Shown here: in pieces, positions 1,906-40,418 of the stretch
Layout of the letters: every line of letters begins with the position of its first letter
How positions within the stretch are numbered: the stretch's first letter is position 1
DNA from: a virus
Lineage: Duplodnaviria; Caudoviricetes
DNA length: 40,418 nt
Virus record (IMG/VR): IMGVR_UViG_3300033067_000326
Coordinates: 1-40,418 of that record
Direction: 5' to 3' (one strand)
Translations under genes and position numbers: made by a program
Notes under the pieces: model-generated
What the model was told of the DNA's origin: nothing
The model's input: the letters and a program-made list of their open reading frames with translations, nothing else
Databases searched by the model: none

Positions 1906-2495
1906 AAGAAGTGATTATATTTGATGACTTATTGCCGCAAGGCTATGCAGACCAACTCGAAGCCGACTTAATGAGCATGCCGTTTCCGTGGCATTACATT
2001 GACGATGTAACTAACCAAAGCTACGGGTCCAACTCGGGTTTTGCTCATCTAGCATTTGACTTAGGTAAGCAACCCACCGAGTGGTACCAATTTCTTAAAC
2101 CGATTGTGTATCACATTGAAGAAGTTCAGGGCAAGCGTATGCTTGAGCTTTTGCGTATCCGAGTTGGGCTACTAATGCCGACTACGGAAGCTGACTACAG
2201 TCACAATACCCCGCATGTGGATTTTACATTCCCACACTACACTGCCTGTTACTATGTCACTGACAGTGACGGCGATACAGTTGTATTTGATCAGGCGTTA
2301 ACTGATGCCAAGTTGGACAACGTCACAGAGCAGGGTATAGTTGATTATGTAAAAGGCACCGAGTTCACAGTGCTAGGGCGAGCAAGCCCGAAGAAGAACA
2401 GTGTATGTATATTCGATGGACTAAAATTCCATGCGAGTACTAAACCAAAACATCACAGTAGAAGAATCGTAATAACAATTAACTATGTATCATAA
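1902..2495 (+). CDS. 2OG-Fe(II) oxygenase superfamily protein
   Basis: 197 aa; PHVD (HxD), distal FHAS His, RIVITIN (2OG-binding Arg); ATGA overlap with upstream gene. Confidence 0.75.
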   Translation: MKEVIIFDDLLPQGYADQLEADLMSMPFPWHYIDDVTNQSYGSNSGFAHLAFDLGKQPTEWYQFLKPIVYHIEEVQGKRMLELLRIRVGLLMPTTEADYSHNTPHVDFTFPHYTACYYVTDSDGDTVVFDQALTDAKLDNVTEQGIVDYVKGTEFTVLGRASPKKNSVCIFDGLKFHASTKPKHHSRRIVITINYVS

Positions 2496-4110
2496 TATCA
2501 AATCAATTTGTATCGTGGGCGGTGGTAGCAGTGGGTGGATGACAGCCGCAGCAATCTCTAAGATGTTGCCCGACATGGAACTAACATTGGTAGAAAGCTC
2601 GGCTATCCCCACAATTGGCGTGGGAGAAAGTACAATTGGGCACATTAATCAATTCCTAACAATGCTGGGTCTTAAAGATGAAGACTGGATGGCAGCGTGT
2701 AATGCCACGTACAAGACTAGTATCAAGTTTATTGACTTTAGGGACAATCCTGGCGAGCAACCTCATAAGTTCCATTACCCGTTTGGTATCTTTGACTTCT
2801 CGGACAAACCACGTGGTGCAATGGAATGGTTTTTAGCCGCAGCGGACCGCGGCGACATTGATCCAAGTAACTTTGCAGAGTTTTATCATGATGCAATTTT
2901 AATGACTGATCAAAACAAACTAACAAAGAACGAAGACTTTAAGATTCGCGGATTTAAGTTTAAGCAAGACACAGCGTATCACATGGATGCAGCTTTGTTT
3001 GGAAACTATTTGCGCGATAATCTCTGCTTGCCATTTGGTATGACACATATCGTTGATACGGTTGATCGAGTAGTACAACGTGAAGACGCAAGCATTGAAA
3101 AGATTGTTACCAAAGAAGGTAAGCACATCCACGCAGATTTGTTTATTGATTGTAGTGGCTTTAGAAGCATATTGTTGGATCAAACACTAAACGAACCGTT
3201 TGTTAGTTTCCACGACACGTTATTAAATGACCGTGCAGTTGCAACAGTTATTCCGTATATTGACAAAGATGCAGAGATGGAAAACTACACATCGTGTACA
3301 GCCATTGAGGCTGGATGGGTTTGGAACATCCCGTTATGGAATCGAATCGGTACCGGGTATGTTTACAGTAGCAAGCATGCAACAGAAGAAGAAGCAGAAG
3401 CTCAGTTCCGTAAACACTTGAAAAGCAATCGCATGATTTTCCCTGATGCAGCACGAGCAGATGAGTGCGAAGTGCGTCACATTAAGATCAAGCATGGTGT
3501 ACATCAACGTGCATGGGTCAAGAATGTTGTTGGGATCGGGCTTGCAAATGGATTCATTGAGCCACTTGAGAGCACAGGACTGATGCTAACTCACGAAGGC
3601 ATTATCAAACTTGTTAGTGCGTTACTGATGCGTAAAGGTCGGGTAAGCAACTACGATGTTGACTTGTTTAACTTTGGATTCCAGGAACAGATTATCGGGT
3701 TTAAGGACTTTATTAGTCAACACTATGCGTTGAGTATGCGCAATGATACGCCGTATTGGCAAGAAGTCTCTGGTAAGGTAACTTACTCACACGGCATGAA
3801 CGGTACTGAAAACTTGGCTGGGTTTAGTCATGGAGCCCAATCTCGCACAGACTTGGCATTTAGGTTGCATCGTAATCGCATGTTTGACCAAGGCATGGGT
3901 GGTATCATTTACATTGCAGCGGGAATGGGATACAATCCAGTAGAATCAAACTTCTTGCGCCACGAAGACGAAAGAGTGCATGAGAGCCCGGAAATGCGAG
4001 CACCTGTGTACGAGAATTGGCTAAAACATAAAGAAGAAGTGCTTGAGCATATCAAGACATTACCGACTCACTACGAATTCCTACGCGATAATATCTATAA
4101 TTCCAAATAA
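2485..4110 (+). CDS. Flavin-dependent tryptophan halogenase family protein (PrnA-like)
   Basis: 541 aa; VGGGSSGW FAD motif, IGVGEST, CNATYKTSIKF (catalytic Lys position), FIDCSGF, WVWNIP (WxWxIP), FIEPLESTG. Confidence 0.9.
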   Translation: MYHNIKSICIVGGGSSGWMTAAAISKMLPDMELTLVESSAIPTIGVGESTIGHINQFLTMLGLKDEDWMAACNATYKTSIKFIDFRDNPGEQPHKFHYPFGIFDFSDKPRGAMEWFLAAADRGDIDPSNFAEFYHDAILMTDQNKLTKNEDFKIRGFKFKQDTAYHMDAALFGNYLRDNLCLPFGMTHIVDTVDRVVQREDASIEKIVTKEGKHIHADLFIDCSGFRSILLDQTLNEPFVSFHDTLLNDRAVATVIPYIDKDAEMENYTSCTAIEAGWVWNIPLWNRIGTGYVYSSKHATEEEAEAQFRKHLKSNRMIFPDAARADECEVRHIKIKHGVHQRAWVKNVVGIGLANGFIEPLESTGLMLTHEGIIKLVSALLMRKGRVSNYDVDLFNFGFQEQIIGFKDFISQHYALSMRNDTPYWQEVSGKVTYSHGMNGTENLAGFSHGAQSRTDLAFRLHRNRMFDQGMGGIIYIAAGMGYNPVESNFLRHEDERVHESPEMRAPVYENWLKHKEEVLEHIKTLPTHYEFLRDNIYNSK

Positions 4111-24765: not shown

Positions 24766-26334
24766 ATGAGCAAAGACATGGAAAATTCTATTGTAAAGAC
24801 GCCTTACCAAAAGACGTCTTACACAGAGCTGCAAATCTTAGAATTTGCAAAATGTTCCGACCCAGTAACTGGACCTGAATATTTTATGGACAACTACTTC
24901 TACATCCAGCACCCTACTAAGGGTAAGATGTTGTATCACCCGTTTGATTACCAAAAGAAGTTGATCCACAACTATCACAACTACCGATTCTCTATTAGTT
25001 TGATGCCACGTCAAACTGGTAAATCAACAAGTGCAGCCGGATACTTACTTTGGTATGCTATGTTTGTGCCGGACAGCACAATTCTAATTGCAGCGCACAA
25101 ATACACGGGCGCCCAGGAAATTATGCAGCGTATCCGTTATGCATACGAACTGTGCCCAGACTTTATTAGAGCAGGGGCAACCAGTTACAACAAAGGATCG
25201 ATTGACTTTGAAAACGGGTCACGTATTGTATCGCAGACAACCACAGAAACAACTGGTCGTGGTATGTCTATTTCCCTACTATACGCTGACGAATTTGCAT
25301 TCGTTCGACCCACCATTGCTAAAGAGTTCTGGACTTCCATTTCGCCAACATTAAGCACTGGCGGTAAGGCGATTATTACATCGACTCCAAACAGTGACGA
25401 AGACCAATTTGCGTTAATTTGGAAGGGCGCAAACAAGCGCATTGATGAGTTTGGTAACGAAACCGAACTTGGCACAAATGGATTCCGTGCATACCAGGCG
25501 AACTGGTGGGAACATCCAGATCGTGACGAACAATGGAAAGCAGAAGAAATTGGACGTATTGGTGAAGAACGTTTCCGTCGTGAACACGGTTGCGAGTTCT
25601 TGATCTATGACGAAACCTTAATTAACGCTACCACACTAATTGAAATGGCTGGCATTGACCCAATTGAGCGCCAAGGCCAAGTTCGTTGGTACAAGAAACC
25701 AGACAGAGACAAAACGTATGTGGTTGCACTTGATCCCAGCTTAGGTACAGGTGGAGATCCGGCAGCGATACAGGTACTAGAGCTACCATCGCTTAAACAG
25801 GTTGGGGAATGGCAGCACAACAAGACTCCGGTCCAGCGACAGATTGTTATCCTTAAGGAGATCTGTAACTATCTTTATGAGTGCGTTGGGACTGAAAATA
25901 GCATTTACTACAGCGTAGAAAACAATACACTTGGCGAAGCAGCATTGCTAAGTATTGCTGAAGTAGGGGAAGAAAACATTCGTGGAATTTTCCTCAGCGA
26001 GCCATATAAATCGGGCGGTAGTCGCAGTCACAGAAAAGGTTTCACAACAACAAACAAGAGCAAGCTAGCGGTGTGTGCTAAGTTTAAGAGTTTAGTTGAG
26101 CAAAAGAAACTGGTAATTGCCAGTAAGAATCTTATTTCGGAATTGAAGACGTTTGTTGCAATGGGCAACAGCTATGAGGGCAAAGTAGGAGAAACGGACG
26201 ACCTAGTAATGTCAATGATGCTAGCAGTTCGAATGGTACAAGCGCTGCAAAGCTACGATGCACAGCTAGACGAGCATGTAAAGGATATGGACGAGTACAT
26301 TCAGCCAATGCCCTTCATAATGAGTATGGGCTAA
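24766..26334 (+). CDS. gp17: Terminase large subunit (T4 gp17-like)
   Basis: PFDYQ, PRQTGKST Walker A, LLYADEFAFV Walker B, ITSTPN, VALDPS.G.G.D nuclease motif, DDLVM. Confidence 0.95.
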   Translation: MSKDMENSIVKTPYQKTSYTELQILEFAKCSDPVTGPEYFMDNYFYIQHPTKGKMLYHPFDYQKKLIHNYHNYRFSISLMPRQTGKSTSAAGYLLWYAMFVPDSTILIAAHKYTGAQEIMQRIRYAYELCPDFIRAGATSYNKGSIDFENGSRIVSQTTTETTGRGMSISLLYADEFAFVRPTIAKEFWTSISPTLSTGGKAIITSTPNSDEDQFALIWKGANKRIDEFGNETELGTNGFRAYQANWWEHPDRDEQWKAEEIGRIGEERFRREHGCEFLIYDETLINATTLIEMAGIDPIERQGQVRWYKKPDRDKTYVVALDPSLGTGGDPAAIQVLELPSLKQVGEWQHNKTPVQRQIVILKEICNYLYECVGTENSIYYSVENNTLGEAALLSIAEVGEENIRGIFLSEPYKSGGSRSHRKGFTTTNKSKLAVCAKFKSLVEQKKLVIASKNLISELKTFVAMGNSYEGKVGETDDLVMSMMLAVRMVQALQSYDAQLDEHVKDMDEYIQPMPFIMSMG

Positions 26335-36313: not shown

Positions 36314-36477
36314 AGTGTTAATAAGACCTATATGGCCAGGTAACGAGGACCTGAAAGAACACTATAATAATCTTTAAACGGGCGGACAGGATACATGAAT
36401 GGCATGGTGAGAACGTGCCGAGTAAGACTCCTGGTTAGGGTATTGACCCTAACATATCCAGCAGCAATGCTGGGTAT
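36314..36477 (+). ncRNA. Putative structured RNA (four adjacent stem-loops)
   Basis: AGTGTT/AACACT, CAGGA/TCCTG enclosing TGGCAT/GTGCCG, GTTAGGG/CCCTAAC, ATATCCAGCA-GCAA-TGCTGGGTAT. Confidence 0.5.
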
Positions 36478-36579
36478 TCTAAAACGTGCTAGATGAACAA
36501 TATATATATTTGAACCATATAATTATAGATCTTGCAGCACCGGTTAATGCAAGTTCGCCCTAGCACGTTTTAGAATACC
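36473..36579 (+). repeat. Perfect 20-bp inverted repeat enclosing 67 nt (putative RNA closing stem)
   Basis: GGTATTCTAAAACGTGCTAG (36473-92) / CTAGCACGTTTTAGAATACC (36560-79). Confidence 0.85.
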
Positions 36580-36822: not shown

Positions 36823-36830
36823 AGTTTTAT

Positions 36831-37090
36831 TTCGTTGTAGTTTAGAGTGAGCAAAAAGGTAGCATTGAGTAGGTGAGATAATACATCTAGTAGCACAAAG
36901 TAGATAACAATCGCGTAGGCTGTAAAAAACCAAACACTGTGAGCCCGGGAAGTGCGGGACAGGTTGAAATGTGCAAAAAGTGGGATAAGGCATTGAGGGG
37001 ATGTGAGAATATTGTTCCGGAAGAACACAGGCACCCAGCATACGCGATTTTAGGCCTGAGACGTAGGTTCGAGTCCTACTAACGAAGCCA
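36831..37090 (+). ncRNA. 260-nt tRNA-shaped RNA with large D-region insertion and 21-nt anticodon loop
   Basis: TTCGTTG(36831-37)/TAACGAA(37080-86), G-CCA, T arm GTAGG-TTCGAGT-CCTAC, stem CAGGC/GCCTG. Confidence 0.7.
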
Positions 37091-37091
37091 G

Positions 37092-37240
37092 TTTTGAGAT
37101 AGACGGCACGATTGAGTCCCATTCTGCATAGCATACCGGCTGGTATGTGACAGCGCCAGTTTGCAGCTTATGGTAGTTTAAACTCTTGTGTACGAGACAA
37201 TCCAGTGAGTCCACCCAGGTGGATAGTTGGGCTCTCAAAA
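37092..37240 (+). ncRNA. Putative structured RNA between tRNAs
   Basis: TTTTGAGA/TCTCAAAA closing stem; nested GATTG/CAATC, CCAT/ATGG, CTGCA/TGCAG, GCATACC/GGTATGT, TCCAC/GTGGA. Confidence 0.55.
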
Positions 37241-37249
37241 ACCTTTTAT

Positions 37250-37583: not shown

Positions 37584-37675
37584 GGAAAGTAATGCAGCGG
37601 GGTTGGTCCTGCGACTAGTCTTGAAAACTAGGTTCTCAGAAATGGGATGGGGTTCGACTCCTCTGCTTTCCGCCA
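37584..37675 (+). tRNA. tRNA-Ser(UGA), 8/4-type fold
   Basis: GGAAAGTA/TGCTTTCC 8 bp, T stem GGGG/CCTC 4 bp, CTAGT-CT-TGA-AA-ACTAG, long V arm, G73, CCA. Confidence 0.85.
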
Positions 37676-38138: not shown

Positions 38139-39749
38139 ATGAACGTATGTGTTATAGGTGCAGGATTCACGGGAATCTTAACTGCATTAATTCTAAAGAA
38201 AAATTGTCCCAGTGTAACTATTACACTAATTGACAGCAACAAAGAACCAAAGAATTTCGGATTTGGTGAGAGTGCGCCACCGGCGTTCATGACATGGCTG
38301 CTTAACTCACTAAAAGTTGCACCCGAAGAAAGATCGCAATGGGTCACCGATTGGTTAATTGGTACAAACAGTACATTTAAGTACAACCTAAAGTGGCAGA
38401 ATTTTACAAGTGCATCCGACGACGGATATGTAAGTGGTGTACGTGACATGCCTGATTTTAGGGCTATACTTGACGGAAGTCCGGTAGGTCACGGGATGGA
38501 CATTAACATCGCAAATCCAGACAACAATGCATATCGCATGTTTGACCTCTGGTACGAACTGTACAAGGCAGGGCACAGAAAGTTAGAAGACTTTCAACCT
38601 GACACCAATGACTTGTACTGGCTTTCTAAGAAAGGCAGAGTTCCTTACTACGAAGGCAGGTTTGTGTTTGACGTAATGAGCAGTCACATTAACTCATTTG
38701 AAGTGTGTGAATGGCTTAGAAACAAATACGGAGATATCATTGATACTGTTGTAGTAGACACTATCAAAGACATTGAGTTTACATCGTCTGGGGCGATTAA
38801 AGAATTGCACCTAGAGTCGGGTAATACCACAACAGCAGATTTTTACATTGACTGTACTGGTTTTAAGCGGTTAGTAGGTAACAAAGCCAACTTGCCATTT
38901 AAGCGTCCGGATACTGACATCTACCATGATTCGGTTACTGTAGTGGCAAACAGCTACACGGAAAACTTTGAGCAAGAGATGTTACCGCAAACAGTTGGAT
39001 ACGGAATGGACTATGGTTGGACCTTTTCTATTCCGTTGCTAAACAGAAAAAGTTACGGATACACTTACAATTCCCGGGATCTAACGCCCGACCAGGCACT
39101 GGAGGAATTGGCAACACTAAGCGATCCAGCAACTAGAGTCATTGAGCCTATACATTTAAAGTGGACTCCTGGAGGGTACACCACATCGTGCAAGGAAAAC
39201 TTTGCACTAGTTGGGCTAAGTGCAGGATTCGTTGATCCGTTTGATGCTAACACAATTGGTCTACAAGTAATACAGCTAAACAATTTAGTTGAATTTTTCA
39301 ATGACACAACAAAGCAGCATCTACAAGATCGTTACAATGAAGAAACATGGGGCTTGTTTAGCTCTGTGGCAGAGCGTGTCGAATATCATTTTGGACTAGC
39401 ACCAAGATCGACGTCACCGTATTGGGAACGTAATCATCAAGTTGCAAAGCACAAACGTTTAGAAGATGCAATCTTTGAAACGCTAAATGATTACAAGCAT
39501 TCTCCAGATGCTGAACGCCGTGGTCGATTTATACCGTATCGCAGTGCATTGTATCTAAGTGAGTTAGTGTACTTTGACATTGACATGAGCAGACGTTGCA
39601 GAAACTCTAATCCGTCGCTGTTAATGTTTGCCAAGGACTTTTTCAAGACCAATGCAAACTTAAACAGGGCAAGAGCAGAGTTATTTCCTACATTGTTGCA
39701 GTGGTACAAGATGAAAGGCATTGACTTAAAGCAATTAAACGGTCTATAA
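38139..39749 (+). CDS. Divergent flavin-dependent halogenase family protein
   Basis: 536 aa; IGAGFTG, FGFGES, STFKYNLKW, YIDCTGF, WTFSIP, FVDPFDANT; GAGG RBS and ATAAATA at 38111-17. Confidence 0.8.
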   Translation: MNVCVIGAGFTGILTALILKKNCPSVTITLIDSNKEPKNFGFGESAPPAFMTWLLNSLKVAPEERSQWVTDWLIGTNSTFKYNLKWQNFTSASDDGYVSGVRDMPDFRAILDGSPVGHGMDINIANPDNNAYRMFDLWYELYKAGHRKLEDFQPDTNDLYWLSKKGRVPYYEGRFVFDVMSSHINSFEVCEWLRNKYGDIIDTVVVDTIKDIEFTSSGAIKELHLESGNTTTADFYIDCTGFKRLVGNKANLPFKRPDTDIYHDSVTVVANSYTENFEQEMLPQTVGYGMDYGWTFSIPLLNRKSYGYTYNSRDLTPDQALEELATLSDPATRVIEPIHLKWTPGGYTTSCKENFALVGLSAGFVDPFDANTIGLQVIQLNNLVEFFNDTTKQHLQDRYNEETWGLFSSVAERVEYHFGLAPRSTSPYWERNHQVAKHKRLEDAIFETLNDYKHSPDAERRGRFIPYRSALYLSELVYFDIDMSRRCRNSNPSLLMFAKDFFKTNANLNRARAELFPTLLQWYKMKGIDLKQLNGL

Positions 39750-39834: not shown

Positions 39835-39863
39835 TTGACAGTTATTGAACTGTTTGCTACAAT
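39835..39863 (+). promoter_or_regulatory. Sigma70-like promoter
   Basis: TTGACA-17 nt-TACAAT with TG extension. Confidence 0.8.
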
Positions 39864-39917: not shown

Positions 39918-40003
39918 GCGACTGTGGTGAAATAGGTAGACACAAGAGACTTAAAATCTCTCGCTGTAATGGCGTTCCGGTTCGATTCCGGACAGTCGCA
40001 CCA
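39918..40003 (+). tRNA. tRNA-Leu(UAA)
   Basis: GCGACTG/CAGTCGC, AGAGA-CT-TAA-AA-TCTCT, long V arm, CCA. Confidence 0.93.
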
Positions 40004-40128
40004 TATACAAACATTCTTGACGGGGTGTGTGCCGGGCTAGAATCCGGTAACTATTTCGGTCTCCTGGCAGAGGCGAAAGTAGCAGTGTGCCAGCACTGTG
40101 GCGAAATTGAGAGTGTTTCTATATGGTG
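39999..40128 (+). ncRNA. Putative kissing-loop structured RNA
   Basis: Closing stem CACCATATA-c-AAACATTC / GAGTGTTT-c-TATATGGTG; three inner hairpins; loops CTGGCA and TGCCAG are complementary. Confidence 0.65.
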
Positions 40129-40155: not shown

Positions 40156-40230
40156 GGAGCATTCGTCTATCGGTTAGGACATCAGGTTTTCATCCTGAGA
40201 AGAGGAGTTCGATTCTCCTATGCTCTTCCA
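40156..40230 (+). tRNA. tRNA-Glu(UUC)
   Basis: GGAGCAT/ATGCTCT, TCAGG-TT-TTC-AT-CCTGA, U discriminator, CCA. Confidence 0.88.
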
Positions 40231-40232
40231 AG

Positions 40233-40418
40233 TTTTGCTGACACAGGGTGCGAGTAATCGCTATGTGGCTAATGTTGTAGAATGAGCAGTGTCGCCTTAC
40301 CGCAGACAATAGTTAGTCTCTACCCTTGCAACGGCGAACGATTTAGTGCCTCATACTATCAATCGGGAGAGCATTACCTAAAACCCTAAGCAGGGCATCG
40401 ACAGTAAAGGCAGTTGCC
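40233..40418 (+). ncRNA. Putative structured RNA, may extend past window end
   Basis: AGGGT/ACCCT, GCGA-GTAA-TCGC, GGCTAATGTTGT/ACAATAGTTAGTC, possible TTTTGCTG/CAGTAAAG closure. Confidence 0.4.

Follow-up and report, generated by a model that had tools for sequence, protein, structure and literature searches.

Directly 3' of a tRNA-Leu(UAA) gene of a T4-like jumbo phage lies a 126-base folded RNA which, judged by its sequences, is a member of a real small RNA family, absent from Rfam and uncatalogued in the sources that could be searched. The element is probably a conserved four-way-junction RNA carried within a stem that is anchored on the CCA end of the tRNA and predicted to be an RNase III substrate, and the freed 114-base RNA would be a compact decoy or scaffold locked by its loops. 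Comparison of the sequences showed the fold (helices P1 to P4) and the complementarity of two hairpin loops to be conserved, with covariation, in five phage records; it also showed that the carrier stem and the cargo are separate modules, because the stem recurs behind other tRNAs and with unrelated cargoes inside it.

The element and its genomic setting

The window, that is the whole stretch of 40,418 nt that was analysed, comes from a T4-like jumbo myovirus, of which it covers 40 kb, and encodes a tail sheath protein, a T4-type terminase (24766-26334), UvsX, UvsY and SSB. Its UvsX shares 66-68% identity with the UvsX proteins of CBB, GAP32, XbC2 and Atu_ph07, and the hosts of its closest cultured relatives are Proteobacteria. 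The window or part of it was present in 20 of the 24 public runs listed, mostly freshwater metagenomes; public RNA runs covered only small shares of it, with the exception of one run, which may be DNA. The 17 tRNA genes of the window are located at 32.4-40.2 kb, and the element makes up most of the gap between tRNA-Leu(UAA) and tRNA-Glu(UUC). A putative promoter upstream of tRNA-Leu, a consensus match only (two such sites were found versus 1.5 ± 1.2 in shuffles), is likely the start of a precursor that comprises tRNA-Leu and the element. Two genes of the tryptophan-halogenase family were also observed (2485-4110 and 38139-39749), one of them within the tRNA array; no related loci were found via the neighbouring halogenase gene. 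The features of the region are as follows:

39835..39863, plus strand: promoter-like site of the sigma-70 type (11/12, extended -10), 55 nt upstream of tRNA-Leu
39918..40003, plus strand: tRNA-Leu(UAA), whose CCA (40001-40003) provides the first three pairs of the closing stem
40001..40020, plus strand: 5' strand of P1, the carrier stem (19 pairs plus a mismatch at 40008)
40021..40058, plus strand: P2 arm (40021-26 with 40053-58, an internal loop, and an apical hairpin of variable sequence, 40031-40048)
40059..40074, plus strand: P3 hairpin GTCTC/GAGGC (40059-63/40070-74) with loop L3, CUGGCA, 40064-40069
40075..40078, plus strand: linker GAAA from P3 to P4, found in all five members
40079..40102, plus strand: P4 hairpin with loop L4, UGCCAG, 40088-40093
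40107..40126, plus strand: 3' strand of P1 (mismatch at 40119)
40156..40230, plus strand: tRNA-Glu(UUC), the next gene, presumably on the same precursor

The initial annotation had described a closing stem of about 17 pairs, with one C-C mismatch, over the CCA of tRNA-Leu. This stem is real and longer than claimed: 39999-40007 pair with 40120-40128 and, beyond the C40008.C40119 mismatch, 12 further pairs join 40009-40020 to 40107-40118; its outermost pairs (39999-40000) are not a conserved part. The fold of the element (-54.8 kcal/mol, z -4.71) was matched by none of 200 shuffles, and in the predicted fold of the precursor P1 and both tRNA cloverleaves form together. The hairpins GCCGG/CCGGT (40031-35/40044-48) and CAGTG/CACTG, noted earlier, are present in the sequence, and the loops at 40064-69 and 40088-93 are indeed exact complements (CUGGCA/UGCCAG); six contiguous complementary bases between two hairpin loops occurred in none of 3000 shuffles of the interior, five such bases in 22. 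A long middle stem (CTATTTCG/CGAAAGTAG) that had also been proposed had to be given up, its pair probabilities being ≤0.01 in the ensemble. It is replaced by the pairing of 40021-26 with 40053-58 (ensemble probability 0.62-0.63), which covaries in homologues, and covariation supports a four-way junction instead. Across four runs, the only variation inside the element is C40008A, at the stem mismatch.

Several other candidate RNA elements were observed in the window. An unannotated multi-hairpin RNA at 36330-36510 (z -3.4) has homologues at L019, L020, L044 and L290 and no Rfam match. In the stretch 36827-37092, about 260 nt, a tRNA-like acceptor stem, a T arm and CCA frame a long insert; the stretch was called neither by ARAGORN nor by Rfam and has no homologue among the collected loci. 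Right behind a CCA, 37093-37243 holds an element closed by a short stem, with homologues at L346, L094 and L290 and a fold not above that of shuffles, and 37584-37671 is a tRNA with a long arm and a Ser-like UGA anticodon loop that escaped ARAGORN and matches tRNA-Sec weakly (37.4 bits vs 47). Behind tRNA-Glu, 40240-40341 is a second swappable insert: contigs of three runs carry another 104-nt stretch there between unchanged flanks, and the version in the window folds no better than shuffles.

A small family with a conserved fold

A pattern for the tRNA-Leu end retrieved 40 loci, four of them with a similar closing stem around a different interior, while a pattern for the 5' stem strand retrieved 60, with the interior of the window in two (L279, identical with L339, and L301, identical with L340). 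A model built from the window, L339 and L340 and run on 100 IMG/VR records recovered the same two and added L341 (88.1 bits) and L342 (77.5 bits), everything else in those 100 records scoring ≤40.3 bits; altogether, family members score 77.5-132.8 bits and the best non-member anywhere 41.1. Pairwise identity among the five members is 0.51-0.72. Directly upstream lies tRNA-Leu in the window, tRNA-Gly in two homologues, tRNA-Lys in one and a plain hairpin ending ACCA in L342, a distribution that speaks against the earlier proposal of a regulator of tRNA-Leu in particular.

None of the ten IMG/VR records at least 90% complete, among the 100 scanned, carries this RNA, which is therefore accessory. 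Exact interior patterns yielded no homologue in IMG/VR (0, 2 and 7 matches, the latter two sets being chance), nor did blastn searches of cultured phages with the element or L341 as query. A core pattern had 25 matches in GTDB genomes, none of which scored with the model; model R1 found no member in 100 of 120 metagenome loci (best 41.1 bits) and model R2 none in 13 further records. Rfam assigned no family to the element, the best overlaps reaching 15-20 bits where the cut-offs are 47-65. Neither the family nor the CCA-anchored frame was found described in the literature searched; PMC10690425 presents 8,495 IMG/VR candidate RNAs, and its tables, as far as covered, contain none of the motifs, while the family may be in its alignments.

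The five members share the four-way junction of P1, P2 (interrupted by an internal loop and capped by a variable hairpin), P3 (5-6 bp), the GAAA linker and P4. In the alignment, which was fitted to a model built from three of the five members, 91.9% of 223 cells are paired, and in 18 of 45 pairs both partners have changed. When the partners are slid along the same alignment, 35-44% pair, and none of 500 shuffles reaches the observed pairing, a test in which sequences may outdo shuffles through their relatedness. In P2 the first three pairs (C-G, G-C, G.U) and in P3 the two outer pairs are identical in all members (both hand-anchored); in P4, the two pairs under L4 are invariant and the lower stem is mismatch-tolerant (75.6% of cells paired), and the P1 mismatch is A.C in three homologues. 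L3/L4 reads CUGGCA/UGCCAG in four members and CUGACA/UGUCAG in L340, a compensatory change of G-C to A-U; the loop-loop helix is paired in 30 of 30 cells, and L3 and L4 are spaced by 18 nt in every member. The original idea, a compact non-coding RNA in which two loops pair, is thus supported, all six loop pairs being kept in all five members, and the check suggested at the time, complementarity of the loops in homologues, was passed with one compensatory change. The support for the loop pair consists of that single change, five of the six pairs being invariant, and this invariance could also be caused by a protein or RNA partner. Both versions of L4 resemble the core of an anticodon loop, U-GCC-A that of tRNA-Gly and, in L340, U-GUC-A that of tRNA-Asp, which may be chance.

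In the SRP Alu domain and in phi29 pRNA, two hairpin loops pair and the ends are closed by a helix, features shared by the element; unlike SRP, it has no S domain and contains the GAAA linker. The best SRP hit was Fungi_SRP with 17.7 bits against a cut-off of 65 (E 0.058), and an SRP Alu domain was dropped as a reading. A phi29-type pRNA was rejected for lack of an Rfam match and in view of the phage, which has a T4-like terminase, not a phi29-type motor. Bacterial Y RNA (YrlA) is defined by GNCGAAN0-1G near the 5' end, the T and D arms of a tRNA-like domain and a Ro60 gene within about 4 kb. That motif is located mid-molecule in two of the five members and near the 3' end in one, and is absent from two; none of the five has a GTTCRA loop, and YrlA did not match over the element at E up to 10; a Y RNA was dropped as well. 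Ro60 (TROVE) was found neither among the 33 ORFs of the window, whose contig ends 290 nt downstream, nor in five related non-carrier records. Theta ribozymes, as the available text of PMC10879173 describes them, are likewise small RNAs at the 3' end of phage tRNAs and tied to trailer processing; unlike them, the element has no G1 and no HDV nested double pseudoknot, and it belongs to freshwater rather than gut phages. In this theta/HDV-like class the cleavage-site G1 lies ≤5 nt from the tRNA 3' end and opens the nested double pseudoknot. The theta-type ribozyme considered at first was accordingly dropped, as all five members lack G1 at the tRNA end, their first 10 nt, counted from the discriminator, being free of G.

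The CCA-anchored stem and its predicted processing

The overlap with CCA is special neither to tRNA-Leu nor to this element, the stem being common to many unrelated inserts. Many tRNAs in the fetched loci are followed directly by a stem of 17-22 bp which opens with the CCA of the tRNA itself and a U and closes with AUGG; the interiors are unrelated, and several such stems occur per genome. Dozens of unrelated RNAs are enclosed by this 19-bp stem in the tRNA arrays of related phages. Stem-bearing trailers numbered 73 among 781 distinct CCA-ending tRNA trailers, a set enriched for the stem because some of the source searches looked for it, versus 9 among 1562 shuffled ones. U follows CCA in 74 of 75 trailers with the stem versus 159 of 742 without. 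The stem-bearing trailers form 45 interior clusters, 35 of which were kept and 10 dropped (stem without CCA, or wobble-rich). At L340 and L342 the last bases of the stem are the first two of the next tRNA, the element forming an exact spacer. The frame is likely a processing signal for all its inserts. No CCA-anchored stem was seen at a tRNA in the fetched parts of the T4, CBB, XbC2 and XacN1 genomes. At L105/L141 and L342 the cassette has no tRNA directly before it and a short ACCA-ended hairpin is found there instead, as though the signal included a helix followed by CCA.

Other cargo families were noticed in such loci. One, of 160-182 nt, between tRNA-Leu and tRNA-Met, has a covarying long-range pair (UGUCA/UGACA, UGUCUA/UAGACA) and no Rfam match on ten loci (L138, L139, L141-L144, L146, L148, L149, L157; in metagenomes e.g. 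L190, L240). Another, of 118-121 nt, with a 6-nt hairpin loop that is palindromic in 7 of 7 variants, is a candidate self-dimerising RNA (L272:199-319:-, L355:442-560:+, L348, L350, L353, L356, L189:1062-1179:+). A third, of 91-93 nt, behind tRNA-Lys or tRNA-Thr, has a tRNA-type T loop (L206, L213, L319 and about 30 similar loci).

In E. coli RNase III substrates, the determinants given in the accessible part of PMC5141509, counted in pairs from the cut centre, are CWUW/WAWG at 2-5 and UU/AG at 10-11; PMC1540722, likewise covered in part, supplies pair rules for the boxes and states that one set of boxes suffices. The rules applied here are those of E. coli. With the centre placed after pair 6, the tRNA's own C-A plus the next U-A form the outer proximal box, CAUA 40002-40005/UAUG 40122-40125, in full agreement with CWUW/WAWG. 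Only the two middle pairs fit in the inner proximal box, CAAA/UUUC, which in the window has a mismatch beside the cut and A-U where G-C is canonical. The distal box, CU 40016-40017/AG 40110-40111, located at pairs 10-11, agrees with the UU/AG or CU/AG rule and is present in four of the five members; L341 is without it and has two extra stem pairs. With its 19 pairs and one mismatch, 12 pairs being inside the predicted cut, the stem has the required length of about two turns and the at least 11 bp called for between distal box and cut; a second distal box would not fit into the short outer arm. Among the cargo clusters, the outer box and both distal pairs fit in 27 of 35, versus 0-8 in six other registers, where it must be considered that the 35 stems are not independent, many deriving from one ancestral sequence, and that two outer-box pairs were fixed in advance by CCA and by the filter; among clusters not matching the 5' search pattern the fit was 20 of 28. 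The T7 substrates R1.1 and uR1.1, as partly described in PMC1540722 and PMC5141509, are alike in having about two turns and boxes at 2-5 and 10-11, as well as an irregular pair beside the cut (PMC1540722). Unlike R1.1, the tRNA's own CCA supplies a box here, the stem encloses a swappable RNA, and the cut is predicted. New E. coli RNase III sites, in the section of PMC5371410 covered, fit the consensus poorly, and the consensus is therefore a weak guide.

A precursor starting from the putative promoter at 39835 would fold P1 over the CCA, and host RNase III would then probably cut at 40007|40008 and 40121|40122, the positions suggested by the boxes. The expected products would be tRNA-Leu with a 4-base tail, the 114-nt RNA, still closed by 12 pairs of the stem, and tRNA-Glu preceded by a short leader; exonucleases would trim the tail, and RNase P would remove the leader. 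Trimming by exonucleases and leader removal by RNase P belong to general tRNA maturation. No RNase III domain is encoded in five near-complete related genomes, none of which carries this RNA family, and the enzyme would therefore be that of the host.

A different use of the same stem was weighed, in which P1 is bound or cut by something other than RNase III, either a phage protein or Mini-III, an enzyme that cuts at ACCA/UGGU-like sites; the entire stem would then stay on the mature RNA once RNase Z/E and RNase P have acted on the flanking tRNAs. The sequence is strongly conserved all along the stem, beyond the needs of RNase III, the element at L340 and L342 is an exact spacer up to the next tRNA, and B. 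subtilis Mini-III cut an ACCA variant well according to the covered part of PMC5141509. We consider this use improbable, as the outer box defines a centre from which the distal-box pairs are exactly 10-11 pairs away, and Mini-III, in the same partial source, works without a distal box. RNase III remains the preferred enzyme. Comparable RNAs are the stable species 1 and 2 of phage T4 (rnaC, 139 nt, and rnaD, 119 nt; NC_000866), which are alike in size, in their tRNA cluster and in their location directly behind CCA. They differ in that the T4 stretch fetched has no CCA-anchored closing stem and rnaD ends in its own CCA, and no sequence likeness to this RNA was noticed.

The kissing loops and the freed RNA

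Because it is accessory and swappable, has no downstream gene and moves between tRNAs, the freed RNA would most likely act in trans. During infection it may bind a host protein or a small molecule at the invariant junction, and it is tentatively that we propose a decoy or scaffold for a host factor bound there, on inference only. L3 is predicted to pair with L4, with a slightly better than even chance that this happens within one molecule; the looseness of lower P4 and the fixed spacing of the loops were counted in favour of such a kiss.

Pairing between molecules has a chance somewhat short of even, and a further possibility, doubtful and by no means far-fetched, is that the freed RNA builds rings or cages like manA, ROOL and GOLLD, self-assembly being its main property. 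All six bases of both loops pair and the P3-P4 linker measures only 4-5 nt; by geometric reasoning, with no model behind it, a kiss within the molecule would need a sharp angle or a frayed P4. On the other hand, the mismatch-tolerant lower P4 could flex, and the SRP Alu domain provides an example of neighbouring hairpins whose loops pair inside a single molecule. In a sibling cargo that uses this frame, GC(A/G)AAA is preceded by a palindromic 6-nt loop in all seven variants (CUGCAG in six, AUGCAU in one, the palindrome being kept through a double change), which by analogy hints at oligomers; this cargo scores 35.4 bits, mostly from the stem, and its homology to the present RNA is not established. 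GOLLD, ROOL and manA are, in the parts of the reports covered, phage ncRNAs of unassigned function held by kissing loops that may link separate molecules, and GOLLD and ROOL lie near tRNA islands (bioRxiv 10.1101/2024.12.08.627333). Covarying loop pairs proved intermolecular in ROOL and GOLLD in that preprint, as far as covered, and loop pairs build manA pentamers in the available portion of bioRxiv 10.64898/2026.07.01.735769. GOLLD lies just upstream in two of the five members. Unlike GOLLD and ROOL, this RNA is much smaller and has one loop pair only, and the GOLLD, ROOL and manA family models gave no match over the element, either in the window or in the four homologues. The furthest extension, in which freshwater jumbo phages run a modular small-RNA factory that releases interchangeable RNAs from RNase III sites built on the CCA of a tRNA, and the 114-base cargo joins itself loop-to-loop into a protein-free ring or cage as a new self-assembling family, is in our judgement unlikely.

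The loop-locked decoy or scaffold, which we prefer, shares its invariant junction with another reading, a new small ribozyme or ligand-binding RNA whose pocket is the junction (ACGG, UCGGU, GCGAAA) held by the kissing loops. The junction pairs and the GAAA linker are invariant in all five members while the arms vary, and adjacent helices locked by loops, with an A-rich linker, recall the purine and c-di-GMP aptamers, which are built in this way. Since neither a ribozyme nor a riboswitch class is matched in Rfam, no downstream gene is there to be controlled, and a protein-type processing signal already makes self-cutting dispensable, this reading appears quite improbable. Least probable is a folding switch that controls the 3' maturation of tRNA-Leu by hiding its CCA: P1 does cover the CCA and is stable in the predicted precursor fold, but the family occurs behind different tRNAs and once behind a non-tRNA hairpin, the same stem is used by unrelated cargoes, and no conserved alternative fold was seen.

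If the favoured explanation is right, the natural RNAs gain a small family whose kissing loop covaries and whose size permits direct probing and cryo-EM, and a stem that is anchored on CCA and can free any cargo would make a simple expression tool. The frame also offers a handle for finding dozens of uncatalogued RNAs. Furthermore, exact predicted cut sites would then be available for the release of unexplained RNAs from phage tRNA arrays, a question that has been open since T4 species 1 and 2.
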